Of a stretch of DNA of 6,740 nucleotides, positions 2,895 through 6,740 are shown piece after piece (position 1 is the stretch's first letter; each line of letters opens with the position of its first letter). Source of the DNA: a virus (lineage: Duplodnaviria > Heunggongvirae > Uroviricota > Caudoviricetes); IMG/VR virus record IMGVR_UViG_2740892212_000008. One strand, written 5' to 3'. The position numbers were made by a program, and so were the translations under genes. The notes under the pieces are model-generated. The model was not told the origin of the DNA and did not search any database. It worked only from the letters and a program-made list of their open reading frames with translations.

Positions 2895-3446
2895 ATGATA
2901 TATCCGGAAATTACAGGCAAAAGCGGCGAACATTTACGCCTGAACACGCTGGAAGCAGTCTGGATCCAGGGGAAATTACGGATGTGGGGGCGGTGGTCGT
3001 ATATCGGTGGGGGTAAATCCGGAAATATGTTTAACCGGTTACTGGTTTCGAAAAAGCTGACGAAAACAGCAGTTAATGAGGTTTTACGCAGAATGAAGAA
3101 ATCCGGGCTGGAAAAACCGGAACTTGAGGCATTTTTTCGGGATATGACAAGAGGAAAGCAGAAGAGCTGGTTGTCACATTGTACAGACACAGAGGCGTTG
3201 ATTATTGATCGCGTTATCAGTGAGGTGCTTGGGGAATATCCCGGGCTAATCAATGTTCTCCGGCAAAGGTACGAAGGACGGGGAATGAGCAAACTGAACA
3301 TGGCCGAAAGGTTAAATGCAGATCATCCTGATTGGTCGTTGGTTACGTGCAGACGCCGAATTGATCAATGGTTGGGGGTATCTGAATTTATGTTATATGC
3401 CCCCATGCGCATGGCTTTTGTTACAGAGAAAAATGTTGCAAACTGA
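2895..3446 (+). CDS. putative late-gene antiterminator Q
   Basis: Position is diagnostic: directly after rusA and directly before terminator structures and late-region cargo. 183 aa from ATG 2895; the in-frame GTG 2883 overlaps the rusA stop as an alternative start. Family assignment is from context and weak recall only. Confidence 0.6.
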   Translation: MIYPEITGKSGEHLRLNTLEAVWIQGKLRMWGRWSYIGGGKSGNMFNRLLVSKKLTKTAVNEVLRRMKKSGLEKPELEAFFRDMTRGKQKSWLSHCTDTEALIIDRVISEVLGEYPGLINVLRQRYEGRGMSKLNMAERLNADHPDWSLVTCRRRIDQWLGVSEFMLYAPMRMAFVTEKNVAN

Positions 3447-3526
3447 TCAATAAACTGCTTCAATCCGTATAAGCTTCGCAAAGCTGTATCGCGAGGCGAA
3501 ACGCAAGTTTTTTTCGCACAAGGAAG
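3436..3526 (+). promoter_or_regulatory. candidate late promoter (PR'-like) and Q-utilisation region
   Basis: -35-like TTGCAA at 3436-3441 inside the Q 3' end; -10-like hexamers TTCAAT (3459-3464) and TATAAG (3468-3473). Exact promoter not resolved. Region carries nested inverted repeats and a weak hairpin plus T7 at 3496-3514. Confidence 0.3.
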
Positions 3527-3547
3527 CCACCGGAAGGTGGTTTTTTT
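3527..3547 (+). terminator. rho-independent terminator, tR'-like
   Basis: Stem CCACC / GGTGG with GGAA loop, followed by seven T (3541-3547). Confidence 0.6.
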
Positions 3548-3670
3548 GTGTCCGCGATATACAGTAGCGCAATAAATTCGCTGGTGGTTATTAATACCGT
3601 TCTTTCAGCTTGCTGGCTTTTTCGACAAGAGTTATTGGTGTGTCACGTTAACCGGAAAAGGGAAAAAGAC

Positions 3671-3868
3671 ATGCTAAAACAGCAGGATATGACAGAAACC
3701 GCCAGAGTGGTGTTTAATGAATTAAGCGTTACCGAACCGGCGACAGTCGGGGAGATAGCGCAGAATACTTACCTTTCACGCGAACGCTGCCAGTTAATAC
3801 TGACCCAGCTGGTTATGGCGGGTCTGGCAGACTATCAGTTCGGTTGTTACAGACGCCTTCCGCAGTGA
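3671..3868 (+). CDS. small protein, 65 aa, winged-helix-like (PapI/FaeA-like pattern), putative DNA-binding regulator
   Basis: ATG 3671 with AAGGGA 7 nt upstream. The segment TVGEIAQNTYLSRERCQLILTQLVMAGL resembles a helix-turn-helix recognition region. The ORF-track version starts at GTG 3548, next to the terminator T-run, and is less likely. Confidence 0.5.
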   Translation: MLKQQDMTETARVVFNELSVTEPATVGEIAQNTYLSRERCQLILTQLVMAGLADYQFGCYRRLPQ

Positions 3869-3878
3869 AGGCTTTTTT
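3855..3878 (+). terminator. terminator-like hairpin overlapping the small ORF stop codon
   Basis: Stem GCCTTC / GAAGGC with 6-nt loop, followed by TTTTTT. Confidence 0.4.
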
Positions 3879-3895
3879 ATTTGTGGTAAATGGGC

Positions 3896-3926
3896 GGCTG
3901 GTGGGTGTTAGGGGCACCCACCAGCC
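3896..3926. repeat. perfect 12-bp inverted repeat with 7-nt spacer
   Basis: GGCTGGTGGGTG (3896-3907), spacer TTAGGGG, CACCCACCAGCC (3915-3926). No adjacent T-run, so it is an operator or RNA-structure candidate rather than a terminator. Confidence 0.7.
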
Positions 3927-4018
3927 ATCTGCTCATGCGTTGGGTTCACAAGCAAACCTCAGGCCCACTGCTTTGCGCAAAAGCAGAATGAGCCTATCAG
4001 AGACAGGCTTAATGATCC

Positions 4019-5068
4019 ATGCTTAATACTGTAAAAATATCCAGTTGTGAGTTAATCAACGCCGACTGCCTGGAATTTATCCGGTCGTTACCCGAAAATT
4101 CTGTTGACCTGATAGTCACGGACCCGCCGTACTTTAAAGTGAAGCCTGAGGGCTGGGATAACCAGTGGAAGGGCGACGATGATTACCTGAAGTGGCTGGA
4201 CCAGTGTCTGGCGCAGTTCTGGCGGGTGCTGAAACCTGCCGGAAGTCTTTACCTGTTCTGTGGTCATCGCCTGGCATCTGATATCGAAATCATGATGCGT
4301 GAACGCTTCAGTGTGCTGAACCATATTATCTGGGCGAAGCCGTCCGGACGCTGGAACGGATGCAACAAGGAAAGCCTGCGGGCGTATTTCCCCGCCACAG
4401 AGCGCATTCTGTTCGCGGAACATTATCAGGGGCCGTATCGCCCGAAAGATGCCGGGTATGAGGCGAAGGGCAGGGAACTGAAACAGCATGTGATGGCCCA
4501 GCTGATTTCTTACTTTCGTGATGCACGCGCGGCCCTGGGGATAACGGCAAAACAGATTGCAGATGCCACAGGAAAGAAAAACATGGTGTCGCACTGGTTC
4601 AGTGCCAGTCAGTGGCAGCTACCGAACGAAAGCGATTATCTGAAATTACAGTCGCTGTTTGCCCGGGTGGCAGAAGAGAAACATCAGCGGGGAGAACTGG
4701 AAAAGTCCCATTACCAACTGGTCAGCACATACAGTGAGCTGAACCGGCAGTATATGGAACTGCTGAGTGAATATAAAAATTTGCGGAGGTATTTCGGTGT
4801 GACGGTGCAGGTGCCGTACACCGATGTGTGGACGTATAAACCGGTGCAGTACTATCCAGGGAAACATCCGTGCGAAAAACCGGCAGAAATGCTGCAGCAG
4901 ATAATCAGCGCAAGTAGTCGTCCTGGTGATCTGGTTGCGGATTTTTTCATGGGGTCGGGTTCAACGGTAAAAGCGGCGATGGCACTGGGGCGTCGTGCGA
5001 TTGGTGTTGAGCTGGAGACCGGACGTTTTGAGCAGACAGTCAGGGAAGTTCAGGATTTAATCGTTTGA
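4019..5068 (+). CDS. DNA methyltransferase, beta-class amino-MTase (probably N6-adenine), orphan
   Basis: 349 aa with catalytic motif IV DPPY near the N-terminus (SVDLIVTDPPYF) and SAM-binding motif I near the C-terminus (DLVADFFMGSGST). This order is the beta-class arrangement. No restriction-endonuclease-like ORF is adjacent. Confidence 0.9.
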   Translation: MLNTVKISSCELINADCLEFIRSLPENSVDLIVTDPPYFKVKPEGWDNQWKGDDDYLKWLDQCLAQFWRVLKPAGSLYLFCGHRLASDIEIMMRERFSVLNHIIWAKPSGRWNGCNKESLRAYFPATERILFAEHYQGPYRPKDAGYEAKGRELKQHVMAQLISYFRDARAALGITAKQIADATGKKNMVSHWFSASQWQLPNESDYLKLQSLFARVAEEKHQRGELEKSHYQLVSTYSELNRQYMELLSEYKNLRRYFGVTVQVPYTDVWTYKPVQYYPGKHPCEKPAEMLQQIISASSRPGDLVADFFMGSGSTVKAAMALGRRAIGVELETGRFEQTVREVQDLIV

Positions 5069-5381: not shown

Positions 5382-5407
5382 GGCTCGCTTTTGCGGGCCT
5401 TTTTTTT
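5382..5407 (+). terminator. rho-independent terminator after the tRNA cluster
   Basis: Stem GGCTCGC / GCGGGCC (7 bp, one G-U) with TTTT loop, followed by eight T (5400-5407). Confidence 0.7.
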
Positions 5408-5604
5408 AAATGTCTCACAATTCAGACGGTTGACAGTTGTCTGTTTTGCGGGGAGTTTGTTAAAAGAAACTGGCATGGTGAATCCCCCTGTGCGGAGGGG
5501 CAATCAGCGAGTAGGTATATGGGATAATCGTGGATTCAGGTGCTGGTACTGAATTCACCGGGAGGCACCCGGCACCATGCAATGGCACATAGCGCCACTC
5601 TCCA

Positions 5605-5628
5605 GCCCCTCTCCGGAGGGGCTTTCTT
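5605..5628 (+). terminator. terminator-like hairpin, plus strand
   Basis: Stem GCCCCTC / GAGGGGC with TCCG loop, followed by TTTCTTAT. Confidence 0.4.
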
Positions 5629-5634
5629 ATGGAC

Positions 5635-5663
5635 AAAAAAAGCCCGCGCAGGGAGACGCGGGC
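5635..5663 (-). terminator. rho-independent terminator, minus strand
   Basis: Plus-strand A7 (5635-5641) then stem GCCCGCG / CGCGGGC with 8-nt loop. Read on the minus strand this is a GC stem followed by seven U. Confidence 0.5.
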
Positions 5664-5704
5664 GGCAAGGAATAAACAACAAAACGTGAAGTAATATTTC
5701 AGCT
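5635..5704 (-). ncRNA. candidate ~70-nt small RNA, minus strand (hypothetical)
   Basis: Minus-strand promoter-like element: -35 TTGCGC (plus 5739-5734), 18-nt spacer, -10 TATTAT (plus 5715-5710). The transcript would carry a GU-rich stretch (GUUUUGUUGUUUAUUCC) and end at the minus-strand terminator. No coding potential. Confidence 0.2.
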
Positions 5705-5856
5705 GGCGAATAATATCCGACAGTAATCACTCTGCGCAATAGCGCGGCCTTTTTCGTATTGCGGGCTGTTGTCTCTCTTCTGCCATTGTCCTGTAACTTC
5801 CGGACTTCAGCCCGCTCCTCATTTTACTCACAATATTATCCCGGCCGGGAGGATTC

Positions 5857-6740
5857 ATGGCATTTAAACACTATGATGTTGTCAGGGCGGCGTCGCCGTC
5901 AGACCTTGCGGAAAAGCTGACACACAAACTGAAAGAGGGCTGGCAGCCATACGGCGGACCGGTTGCCATTACGCCGTACACACTGATGCAGGCGGTGGCT
6001 ATTGAAGGAGAGCCACAGGTCGGCCCTTCATCTGAGCCGGATTGGTACTACGTCATCGTACTGGCCGGGCAGTCCAATGCCATGGCTTACGGTGAAGGGC
6101 TTCCGCTGCCGGATTCATACGATGCTCCGGATCCGCGCATTAAACAGCTGGCGCGCCGCAGTACAGTGACGCCGGGCGGGGCTGCCTGCAGATATAACGA
6201 TATTATTCCGGCTGACCACTGTCTGCATGATGTGCAGGATATGAGTACGCTGAATCATCCGAGGGCTGACCTGAGCAAAGGGCAGTACGGCTGTGTCGGT
6301 CAGGGTTTACATATTGCCAAAAAACTGCTCCCGTATATCCCGAATAACGCGGGGATCCTGCTGGTACCATGCTGTCGTGGTGGTTCGGCATTTACCCAGG
6401 GCGCGGAGGGGACATTCAGCGAGTCCACGGGGGCCAGTCAGGATTCGGCACGCTGGGGGGTGGGCAAGCCGTTATATCAGGATCTGATTTCCCGCACAAA
6501 AGCGGCATTGCAGAAAAATCCCAAAAACGTTCTGCTGGCCGTCTGCTGGATGCAGGGTGAGTTTGACATGAGCGCCGCCACCCACGCACAGCAACCTGCG
6601 CTGTTTACAGCCATGCTGACACAGTTTCGTGCTGACCTCTCCGTGTTTAACGCGCAGTGCCATGGTGGCAGTGCTGCAGATGTGCCGTGGGTTTGTGGTG
6701 ACACGACGTATTACTGGAAAAATACATACGCTACCCAGTA
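5857..6740 (+). CDS. nanS: prophage sialate O-acetylesterase (NanS-p type) with N-terminal DUF1737-like region; 3' end beyond the window
   Basis: ATG 5857 with GGGAGG 4 nt upstream. Frame is open to the window end (294 codons, verified by hand; absent from the ORF track because it lacks a stop). Contains the SGNH/SASA nucleophile block VIVLAGQSNAMAYG. Confidence 0.85.
   Translation, partial: MAFKHYDVVRAASPSDLAEKLTHKLKEGWQPYGGPVAITPYTLMQAVAIEGEPQVGPSSEPDWYYVIVLAGQSNAMAYGEGLPLPDSYDAPDPRIKQLARRSTVTPGGAACRYNDIIPADHCLHDVQDMSTLNHPRADLSKGQYGCVGQGLHIAKKLLPYIPNNAGILLVPCCRGGSAFTQGAEGTFSESTGASQDSARWGVGKPLYQDLISRTKAALQKNPKNVLLAVCWMQGEFDMSAATHAQQPALFTAMLTQFRADLSVFNAQCHGGSAADVPWVCGDTTYYWKNTYATQ

Follow-up and report, generated by a model that had tools for sequence, protein, structure and literature searches.

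A two-gene cassette at the start of a prophage late operon

The window, the whole 6,740-nt stretch of DNA analysed, belongs to a lambdoid prophage of Stx-phage layout, at the beginning of its late operon. The gene order is Q, a tR'-like terminator, a 65-aa ORF, a methyltransferase gene, three tRNA genes directly 3' of the methyltransferase, STnc100 and nanS-p. The stretch at 5400-6740 looked odd for its lack of ORFs and is explained by STnc100 and by the start of nanS-p, which runs past the window end. Position and gene order match the Q-antiterminated late operon of lambdoid and Stx phages (pR'-tR' with a short StxS/6S-type transcript; PMC7547250), in which Q is followed by a short terminated transcript, tRNAs, stx or nanS-p and lysis genes, and in which the genes at the operon start are off in lysogens and on via Q read-through (PMC7547250). 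What sets the window apart is the interval from tR' to the tRNAs, which holds a two-gene cassette that has a conserved leader of its own, plus a second terminator-like hairpin. The small gene and the inverted repeats next to it are part of a widespread prophage cassette made up of a winged-helix gene, a hairpin-rich, untranslated and highly conserved leader and a methyltransferase gene, of which 933W/Sp5-type phages retain just ~100 nt of the methyltransferase gene 3' end. Literature searches turned up no account of either the small ORF or the leader.

The conserved cassette is bordered on its left by the tR'-like intrinsic terminator (3527..3547, + strand; CCACCGGAAGGTGG followed by T7), which lies 3' of the Q-like gene. 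An equivalent terminator lies directly 5' of the cassette in all genera aligned and was also called by the terminator scan in loci L009 and L025; in the window the scan gives this stem on the - strand only, and the + assignment comes from reading the sequence. Homology to other prophages begins at ~3570-3580, and a Chi octamer at 3580..3587 (+ strand), which does not vary among the six loci of alignment A1, lies at the left edge of the block common to E. coli prophages. Between this Chi and the small ORF, 25-62 nt 5' of the latter, lies a non-coding block of the form CTTGCTG-N10-CAAGAGTTATTGGTGTGTCAC (3609..3646, + strand), conserved in an alignment of 17 loci from different genera. The block has a promoter-like layout with a poor -10, and a natural deletion in locus L166 joins it to the final 50 nt of the methyltransferase leader.

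The small ORF (3671..3868, + strand; ATG 3671, TGA 3866-3868) is a real, conserved coding gene of the narrow, uncharacterised family phrog_331, placed exactly where the preliminary description had put it. Members are annotated as 'hypothetical' or 'TrmB family', the latter being the RefSeq annotation name. Its start is an internal ATG of a listed GTG ORF (3548..3868), with an AAGGG Shine-Dalgarno-like run 8 nt 5' of the ATG. A 106-aa reading from GTG 3548 was rejected, since the extension overlaps the non-coding block and the terminator conserved across genera and since the ATG and Shine-Dalgarno run are themselves conserved. Over the final codons and stop of the ORF, the terminator scan reported on the + strand an intrinsic-terminator-like hairpin (3855..3883), also foreseen in the preliminary description; it consists of GCCTTC-CGCAGT-GAAGGC at 3855-3872 followed by TTTTTTATTT, and thus has the G+C-rich stem-loop and immediate U-run of an intrinsic terminator. 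The homologous terminator was called in L009, and in Enterobacteriaceae the stem is kept via compensatory changes with a variable loop.

The methyltransferase gene (4019..5068, + strand) begins at ATG 4019, downstream of the repeats as first described, and encodes 349 aa with a strong match to Pfam N6_N4_Mtase (153 bits, E 1.4e-44) and the motif order of a beta-class N6-adenine DNA methyltransferase (DPPY at residues 35-38, FFMGSGST near residue 310). It is 94% identical to the methyltransferase of phage 1720a-02, which is named very similar to M.EcoGII in a passage of Murray et al. 2018 (PMC5778455). Judged from this intermediary, the domain and the motifs, the enzyme is an orphan methyltransferase of the M.EcoGI/GII family, whose members share with it the length of 349 aa, the beta-class order (DPPY ... 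FxGxG) and a prophage location in the relevant passages of PMC5778455. According to those passages, M.EcoGI/GII enzymes are sequence-non-specific, silent in lysogens and deleterious if constitutively expressed (Murray et al. 2018, PMC5778455). Context-independent adenine methylation would be expected of the window enzyme from its family membership. The same passages state silence and toxicity, give no regulatory mechanism and make no mention of an upstream winged-helix gene or structured leader; in the literature found, this remark is the only published one on the control of M.EcoGII.

Linkage between the small ORF and the methyltransferase is strong and extends over different genera. The two genes adjoin in 22 of 24 loci at species level, in 73 of 74 viral contigs and, where the methyltransferase served as seed, in 75 of 80 loci, which bears out the conservation in related prophages to which the preliminary description had tied its proposal. 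Among E. coli genomes carrying the ORF region, the methyltransferase is linked in 2005 of 2285. Mean identity over the same 11 loci was 88% for the 150-nt leader, compared with 78% in the ORF and 79% in the 5' end of the methyltransferase gene.

The small protein is predicted to be a generic winged helix

The AlphaFold2 model of the 65-aa protein (pLDDT 88.6) has the order H-H-H-beta-beta, that is, the three-helix bundle and beta-hairpin wing that define the winged-helix (MarR/IclR/TrmB-like) superfamily, and the predicted fold is that of a generic winged helix. An hmmscan search against Pfam at E<=1 returned TrmB, MarR_2, DUF7342, DprA_WH, HTH_24, Rrf2 and HTH_Crp_2, with TrmB (PF01978) below threshold (18 bits vs a gathering cutoff of 25.6, E 0.0026). 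A search of NCBIfam gave no significant match, phmmer, run at E<=10 on the full set of PDB chain sequences, gave YraP as its sole match, and nothing meaningful was matched in the defence-system libraries. One face of the recognition helix (Q41, T45, Q46) is invariant, and the N-terminal part of that helix, usually the base reader, is its variable part. The top-ranked fold match was a Z-alpha domain, level with generic winged helices; Z-alpha domains (PKZ, ZBP1, ADAR1, poxvirus E3L) are among the closest known systems. The hallmark of a Z-alpha domain is a conserved Asn/Tyr in helix 3 together with a wing Trp. In a manual alignment an invariant Thr stands in place of the Tyr and a Gln in place of the Asn, and an aromatic residue is kept in the wing. 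The small protein is probably an accessory of the cassette that modulates by binding nucleic acid.

The preliminary description had noted a weak resemblance to a helix-turn-helix of PapI/FaeA type. The winged helix is real, but its resemblances are generic and the kinship found no support in Pfam, PDB-sequence or fold comparisons: FaeA (PF04703) is absent from the Pfam results at E<=1, and the 50-60 best fold matches do not include PapI. Like the PapI/FaeA co-regulators of Dam-dependent phase variation, the protein is a small winged helix of similar size; unlike them, it is not part of a fimbrial operon, its neighbours are a Q-like antiterminator, a methyltransferase and tRNAs, and the pap-type Lrp/GATC location is not found. 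The adjacent enzyme is moreover not a site-specific Dam, its family being described as sequence-non-specific in passages of PMC5778455, which speaks against the epigenetic phase switch that had been suggested.

A controller-like element had been suggested as well. Restriction-modification controller (C) proteins are Xre-type (HTH_3) helix-turn-helix dimers that bind C-boxes upstream of the gene encoding them and set when the restriction enzyme is made. The window resembles such systems in having a small DNA-binding-type protein beside a methyltransferase with palindromes nearby. It differs in fold, with a winged helix and no HTH_3 Pfam match for the 65-aa protein, in the absence of a restriction enzyme gene, and in its palindromes, which lie 3' of the small gene and persist without it; the controller model was rejected on fold and on the missing restriction enzyme.

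The spacer before the methyltransferase resembles a folded RNA leader

The most prominent element of the 150-nt spacer is the perfect 12-bp inverted repeat P1 (3896..3926, + strand), pointed out in the preliminary description, with arms GGCTGGTGGGTG (3896-3907) and CACCCACCAGCC (3915-3926) that are 100% complementary and separated by 7 nt. No other perfect repeat in the window has arms of 12 bp or more around a loop of 3-10 nt, and with 0.003 expected per shuffle P1 is far beyond chance. All 29 distinct variants of P1 fold, their lower stems covarying (GGCTGG/CCAGCC, GACTGT/ACAGTC, GACAGT/ACTGTC, GACCGA/TCGGTC) while the apex GTG-TTG(G)TAG-CAC is conserved; the arms come in 10 distinct left and 22 distinct right versions. 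P1 is enclosed by the helix P0 (3890..3936, + strand), in which ATGGG (3890-3894) pairs with CTCAT (3932-3936). Across 79 leaders, 395 of 395 P0 cells were paired (Watson-Crick 318, G.U 77, mismatch 0), with two compensatory changes, and P0 is present in the predicted minimum-energy fold of the window.

Two further helices, P2 and P5, provide an alternative to P0. P2 (3928..3956, + strand) pairs 3928-3937 with 3947-3956, shows double-sided covariation at 4 of 10 pairs (strongest at 102-122, 99-125 and 100-124), overlaps an anti-SD-like GGTTCAC (3943-3949), and is mutually exclusive with P0. P5, formed by GCCCA (3963..3967, + strand) as the alternative partner of (A)TGGGC at 3890-3895, is 99.7% paired, has one compensatory change (in L029), and closes a three-way junction with P1 and P2. 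Later in the leader, the local hairpin P4 (AGCCT-ATCAGAGAC-AGGCT, 3991..4009, + strand) is predicted on both strands and is less conserved in other genera. In certain Providencia-type variants P2 is swapped for a short local hairpin.

The start region of the methyltransferase (4013..4021, + strand) reads TGATCC + ATG in the window and forms invariant (C)TGATCYATG columns in the alignment. UGAUC is complementary to GAUCA of the 16S rRNA 3' end. In the leader it pairs with an upstream G(G/A)UCAC, and this anti-SD:SD helix is 94% paired. Predicted accessibility of the start region was 0.35 vs 0.50 with a shuffled leader and was lower in 22 of 26 loci. The two proposed folds have 86% and 80.5% of their cells paired, compared with at most 51% when the partners are slid, and contain double-sided changes in 12-14 pairs; 0 of 500 shuffles reached the observed values on nearly every measure. 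The predicted + strand fold of the window leader has a z of -3.3. Two ORF readings of the spacer were set aside: a 60-aa ORF across it (3844-4026) has no family match and is interrupted by frame-breaking indels in relatives, and a mini-ORF from ATGGGC (3890) conserves, on inspection, neither length nor sequence. Overall, the repeats resemble a folded RNA leader more closely than they do a protein operator.

Protein operators and Chi sites as alternative readings of the repeats

The preliminary description had envisaged a regulator-operator-methyltransferase module, and the 65-aa protein could be a transcription factor that represses or activates the methyltransferase from the 12-bp repeat and/or a near-palindrome as double-stranded DNA operators. 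Linkage of the two genes is strong, winged helices are typical of DNA-binding regulators, and one face of the recognition helix is fixed. The near-palindrome P3 (3968..3986, + strand), present as first described with 7-bp arms CTGCTTT/AAAGCAG around GCGCA, contains a perfect 10-bp palindrome TTTGCGCAAA at 3972-3981. Its base, GCTT/AAGC, is conserved as outer half-sites would be, and in 35 variants its centre changes yet stays self-complementary (GCGC, AGCGCT, AACGTT, GTGCAC, ACGCGT, GTCGAC, GTAC). An RNA loop needs no such dyad at its very centre, so P3 suggests either a dyad of the DNA itself or templated mutation.

Several observations nevertheless weaken the operator part of the module. The repeats are intact in L163, L170 and L174, all of which lack the small gene, and the small protein is dispensable for their upkeep; conversely, a third group of loci (L176-L190) lacks P2, P5 and P3 entirely and keeps the protein. 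The same protein occurs with different P1 stems (L117 vs L119, L130 vs L132), protein type and P1 type are uncorrelated, leaving protein-operator co-evolution without support, and P1 stems vary freely in a covarying manner around a fixed loop, as a hairpin would. P3 varies in total length from 15 to 17 bp, the part of the recognition helix that usually reads bases is the variable one, and no sigma-70-like promoter for an operator to control was found on either strand of the spacer in three divergent representatives (window, L009, L025). We therefore consider an operator unlikely to be the main function of the repeats. Binding of the 65-aa protein to the region, as DNA or RNA, is possible.

P1 also carries Chi. 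The exact octamer 5'-GCTGGTGG-3' occurs in the 5' arm on the + strand (3897-3904) and in the 3' arm on the - strand (3918-3925), in addition to the site at 3580-3587 (+). The window holds 6 Chi sites vs 0.30 expected; in the species-level loci (139 kb), where 2.1 would be expected on each strand, the + strand holds 125 and the - strand 36. Homology to prophages without the methyltransferase breaks off at ~3908 (~3905-3908 in a first search). The 5' arm of P1 sits in a very Chi-dense region and where mosaic homology is lost, so that the same bases would carry a second, DNA-level constraint. Of 79 leaders, 60 have the same + strand Chi arm, paired with 13 different right arms, and L004 and L005 keep the left arm though the right arm is gone. 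On these grounds the repeat might be mainly a Chi element, on the + strand and in this lineage on the - strand as well, that guards rolling-circle or packaging ends from RecBCD, stimulates recombination and makes the mosaic junction, with the hairpin secondary. However, 18 of 79 leaders keep the hairpin without Chi, both arms having changed (e.g., GACTGTAAAAGTG/CACCTTTACAGTC and GACAGTGAGGATG/CATCCCCACTGTC), the - strand Chi is present in just 15 of 79, and Chi requires no complementary arm, which leaves the conserved stem, the loop and the enclosing P0 unexplained by Chi alone. We regard a mainly Chi-based role as improbable. The overlap of Chi with a structured RNA helix would be a case of one sequence under two constraints, located at a mosaic junction in phage genomes.

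Transcribed strand of the leader

The strand and the RNA ends of the leader are assumed here from the late-operon context, and the strand signal in the substitutions is mixed. P0 and the E. coli-type P1 accept G.U on the + strand only. P2 and the Providencia-type P1 have A.C on the + strand that would be G.U on the - strand, with 180 such cells in P2. Counting G.U vs A.C was therefore rejected as a guide to the transcribed strand, the signals being conflicting; neither strand is statistically decisive because the substitution events that are independent are few.

The structures could instead belong to a - strand antisense RNA, a three-way junction with a terminal short U-run, which would pair with the methyltransferase leader and silence the toxic gene in the style of a type I toxin-antitoxin system. 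P2 is a continuous 9-10 bp helix on the - strand only, the - strand consensus fold is a closed three-way junction and more stable (-64 vs -57 kcal/mol for the + strand), the - strand of the window folds at -72.5 kcal/mol (z -4.1), and the invariant A-run before ATGGG becomes a U-run directly after the closing stem. Against this, every sequence would have an A.C mismatch in the - strand version of P0, a U-run of 3-5 nt after a multi-branch structure is atypical of intrinsic terminators, and the directional substitutions represent few independent events. No - strand sigma-70-like promoter was found in the leader or at the methyltransferase start (window, L009, L025). A search of 3869-4018 against Rfam 15 gave no family match, with P26 sub-threshold on the - strand (24 vs 36 bits, E 0.1). 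We consider an antisense RNA improbable.

Proposed control of the methyltransferase by its leader

We place at about even the chance that a Q-dependent structured mRNA leader gates the methyltransferase, a mechanism that we infer from the arrangement above. In a lysogen, transcription from the late promoter would halt at the tR'-like terminator and, in E. coli-type phages, a second time at the hairpin over the small-ORF stop, so that the methyltransferase would stay off. Upon induction, Q-modified RNA polymerase would pass both terminators. The leader would then set the level of methyltransferase translation through the pairing of the anti-SD-like G(G/A)UCAC with the UGAUC before the AUG, and the anti-SD would be free or not depending on which of the two mutually exclusive folds forms, P0+P1 or the three-way junction of P5, P1 and P2. 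Several observations count against this model, among them the mixed strand signal, the self-complementary centre of P3, the swap of P2 for a short hairpin in certain Providencia-type variants and the lack of P2, P5 and P3 in L176-L190. In addition, Providencia-type loci lack the stop-codon terminator, the start site is accessible in two of 26 leaders (L017 and L026), and the conserved block 5' of the small ORF could act as a promoter, making expression partly Q-independent.

The proposed leader resembles SD-sequestering leaders and riboswitch expression platforms in its mutually exclusive helices and in an anti-SD:SD pairing before the start of a gene for a SAM-dependent enzyme. SAM-III, the SMK box, is an example of such a riboswitch leader. 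The window leader differs in matching no Rfam family, SAM/SAH classes included, and its strand and switching are readings of the sequence. A more specific proposal makes the 150-nt spacer a hitherto undescribed RNA element, riboswitch-like or responsive to a protein, in which competition of P5-P1-P2 with P0-P1 frees or occludes the ribosome-binding site. The partner would be the 65-aa protein, which is of Z-alpha size and would bind in a structure-specific way at the invariant P1 apex or the alternating purine-pyrimidine core of P3, or else a metabolite ligand such as SAM or SAH; to this we assign a low probability, similar to that of the Chi-based role.

M.EcoGII is in wide use for non-specific m6A labelling. 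A conserved leader with a dedicated small protein would explain how an enzyme of this family is kept off in lysogens and released in lytic growth, where it presumably shields progeny DNA from restriction. Around 40% of complete E. coli genomes have relatives of M.EcoGII in their prophages, and in many Shiga-toxin phages such a relative sits in the Q-stx region. Many phages have stx on the transcript that contains the element, so the element's terminator and RNA structure may also affect the expression of the toxin and the tRNAs.

Linkage and prophage context

The preliminary description suggested that a small PapI/FaeA-like regulator, operator repeats and a methyltransferase could form one module, and named co-occurrence of the two genes as a check. 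The small ORF adjoins the methyltransferase gene (4019-5068), about 150 nt away, in four samples. Searches restricted to one genome per species showed adjacency in 22 of 24 loci (Escherichia, Salmonella, Kluyvera, Klebsiella, Citrobacter, Buttiauxella, Mixta, Mangrovibacter, Scandinavium, Enterobacter and Providencia), among which small-protein identity falls to 53%. The two genes also adjoin in 73/74 evaluable IMG/VR contigs and in 75/80 loci found via a Providencia methyltransferase. The ORF region is present in 2285 of 5426 complete E. coli genomes and is joined to the methyltransferase in 2005 of these 2285. Thousands of genomes carry annotations for both genes, and the enzyme family has been characterised; neither the linkage of the genes nor a conserved structured leader with a Chi-bearing helix was found described in Rfam or the literature searched.

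The exceptions take several forms. In some E. coli prophages (L003, 3417-3560; L006, 3298-3440) the small ORF is followed by an unrelated 714-bp 'HTH domain' gene that replaces the methyltransferase; the leader helices P0 and P1 are kept, and the new spacer has a perfect TATAAT. In L005 a large gene of unknown function follows, and in L004 no gene adjoins the small ORF. Three loci (L163, L170, L174) carry the methyltransferase with its full leader directly after tR', the terminator past the Q-like gene, without the small ORF. L166 is a natural deletion of the small ORF and half of the leader; at 1036-1203 the upstream conserved block runs straight into the leader's final ~50 nt, with the small ORF, P0, P1, P2 and half of P3 gone. 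In the Stx2a phage Sakai Sp5 (L191, 1105-1215) the methyltransferase gene is reduced to its last ~100 nt (VKAAMALGRRAIGVELESGRFEQTVREVQNV*). Because this remnant is all that the tR'-to-tRNA stretch holds, phages of the 933W/Sp5 type appear to derive from the cassette by deletion.

The gene layout of the window is that of the Q-stx region of Stx phages, e.g. phiP27, minus stx. It begins with a hok/sok type I toxin-antitoxin locus (785-1110; Rfam sok, 117 bits; Hok-like ORF, 898-1110), followed by a weak, below-threshold isrK-like match (1119-1200, 28 bits) and an adjoining 96-nt masked N-run (1241-1336). Next come a DUF968 gene, RusA, a DUF1133/Q-like antiterminator, a tR'-like terminator (3527-3547), the small ORF and the N6_N4 methyltransferase. 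On the 3' side of the methyltransferase lie genes for tRNA-Met (CAT, annotated Ile), Arg and Arg, and just past them a full-length STnc100 sRNA (5444-5634, Rfam 137.7 bits), in the place where Stx phages have stxAB. The start of nanS-p (SASA family esterase) occupies 5600-6740, which has no listed long ORF because nanS-p runs off the window end. The right end matches E. coli O55:H7 RM12579 at 100% identity, as 5600-6740 also does O111:H2 12A, and 3440-4100 shows 100% identity with E. coli D1. A candidate pR' late promoter over the end of the Q-like gene (3436-3464; TTGCAA, 17 nt, TTCAAT) scored 8 of 12, under the scan threshold; transcripts from it would be short, roughly 75 nt, and stop at the 3527-3547 terminator.

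The small gene and its protein

The small ORF runs from ATG 3671 to TGA 3866-3868 (65 aa), as first described, its ATG being internal to a longer GTG-started ORF. It is a true coding gene: variable sites among 11 species-level homologues number 26/24/54 by codon position, and nucleotide changes in the invariant stretch CQLILTQL are synonymous only. A terminator scan recovered, as terminator-like, the hairpin noted over the stop (GCCTTC-CGCAGT-GAAGGC, 3855-3872, with a T-run, + strand). As for the PapI/FaeA-like helix-turn-helix, the winged-helix fold stood, with an AlphaFold2 model giving a confident H-H-H-beta-beta arrangement (pLDDT 88.6), and the family resemblance did not: there was no FaeA Pfam match, and PapI fell outside the best 50-60 fold matches. 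The closest folds were IclR, MarR, ArsR, SelB and Z-alpha winged helices, with similar scores; winged-helix Pfam families matched weakly and sub-threshold (TrmB, 18 bits vs 25.6). The protein matches phrog_331 (E 1.4e-37), of unknown function, and its family is narrow: a search of 1.84 billion representatives gave 84 clusters at E<=1e-3.

Directly 3' of the tR'-like terminator and 25-62 nt 5' of the small ORF, the non-coding block CTTGCTG-N10-C(C/A)AGAGTTAYNTGTRTGTCAC (3609-3646) is kept across genera. Its spacing is promoter-like (-35 TTGCTG, 17 nt) and its -10 poor (TAYNTG). If it acts as a promoter, it would make up, with the small gene and the terminator, a moron-like unit expressed in the lysogen.

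A conserved leader with covarying helices

The spacer (3869-4018) is the most conserved part of the region: across one shared set of 11 loci its mean identity is 88%, versus 78% for the small ORF and 79% for the opening 300 nt of the methyltransferase gene. Its architecture is fixed across 79 distinct aligned leaders (alignment A3). In helix P0, ATGGG pairs with CYCRT, enclosing P1 (395/395 cells paired); G.U occurs in the + strand sense only, and compensatory changes number two. P1 is the 12-bp inverted repeat already noticed, and its arms (3896-3907/3915-3926) proved 100% complementary, 7 nt apart and the only repeat of their kind in the window (0.003 expected per shuffle). All 29 distinct P1 variants fold, with covariation in the lower stem (GGCTGG/CCAGCC, GACTGT/ACAGTC, GACAGT/ACTGTC, GACCGA/TCGGTC) and a conserved apex, GTG-TTG(G)TAG-CAC; since P1 usually has one internal mismatch or bulge, the perfect 12 bp of the window is an exception. 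P2, with double-sided covariation at 4 of 10 pairs, overlaps P0 and is mutually exclusive with it. In P5, (A)TGGGC takes GCCCA as an alternative partner, completing a three-way junction alongside P1 and P2. P3 is the near-palindrome at 3968-3986, likewise present as described, with 7-bp arms around GCGCA and the perfect palindrome TTTGCGCAAA inside; its 35 variants span 15-17 bp and their centres remain self-complementary.

Invariant CUGAUC, just 5' of the methyltransferase AUG, pairs with an anti-SD-like G(G/A)UCAC in 94% of cells. Canonical GGAGG is absent before this AUG, and UGAUC is complementary to GAUCA of the 16S rRNA 3' end. Pairing in the two proposed folds reached 86% and 80.5%, with slid controls at most 51%. 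Start-region accessibility was 0.35 versus 0.50 with shuffled leaders, and lower in 22/26 loci; the window's own leader had a fold z of -3.3. No Rfam family matched the leader.

Readings of the repeats

We interpret the spacer as a Q-dependent structured mRNA leader upstream of the methyltransferase, a reading to which we give an even chance, given the evidence against operators and the limits on a pure + strand RNA reading. That the repeats are simple operators for the small protein appears unlikely. They are kept where the small gene is lacking (L163, L170, L174), the same small protein occurs with differing P1 stems, and P3 varies in length and is missing in a group that retains the protein. 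Nor did computation find a sigma-70-like promoter on either strand of the leader in three divergent representatives (the window, L009 and L025).

Chi (GCTGGTGG) lies within the 5' arm of P1, and in the window's lineage the 3' arm carries Chi on the opposite strand. The 79 leaders have 10 distinct left versus 22 distinct right arms, and one left arm, GGCTGGTGGGTG, recurs unchanged alongside 13 different right arms; by this comparison the Chi arm is under more constraint than pairing requires. Homology to methyltransferase-less prophages stops at ~3908, right after the Chi arm. That the repeat is primarily a Chi element is improbable, as 18/79 leaders keep the hairpin without Chi, both arms having changed. 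The hairpin survives Chi loss, so Chi is an added constraint and not the explanation of the repeat.

A pure + strand RNA reading is kept short of certainty by four observations: A.C mismatches in P2 and Providencia-type P1 become G.U on the - strand, folding of the - strand is no worse, an RNA loop does not need the fully palindromic P3 centre, and few independent events lie behind the directional substitutions. An antisense reading, on which the two - strand observations bear, we rate as improbable.

Gene order, family assignments, linkage, conservation, covarying helices, Chi content and the lack of promoter-like sites were computed here. Published work gives the enzyme family as non-specific, toxic and silent in lysogens (PMC5778455), and Q gates late-operon genes at tR' (PMC7547250). 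In the mRNA-leader reading, Q-modified polymerase would read through both terminators, the leader would choose between the P0 fold and the P5-P2 fold, and anti-SD/SD pairing would gate methyltransferase translation; the small protein may have a role.

The methyltransferase and Chi content

The methyltransferase (349 aa) has the motif order DPPY ... FxGxG and shares 94% identity with the phage 1720a-02 enzyme. Murray et al. list the latter as very similar to M.EcoGII, which methylates adenine non-specifically, is silent in its lysogen and is harmful or toxic under constitutive expression (PMC5778455). That paper gives no mechanism of regulation. The linked genes and their structured leader make directly testable how a toxic, promiscuous methyltransferase stays silent and then gets released.

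Chi sites lie at 710, 1563, 3580 and 3897 (+) and at 2148 and 3918 (-) of the window, six versus 0.30 expected. The 23 species-level loci L008-L030 (139 kb) contain 125 on the + and 36 on the - strand, with about 2 per strand expected. Across the window and these loci, Chi density is extreme and biased toward the late-transcription strand.
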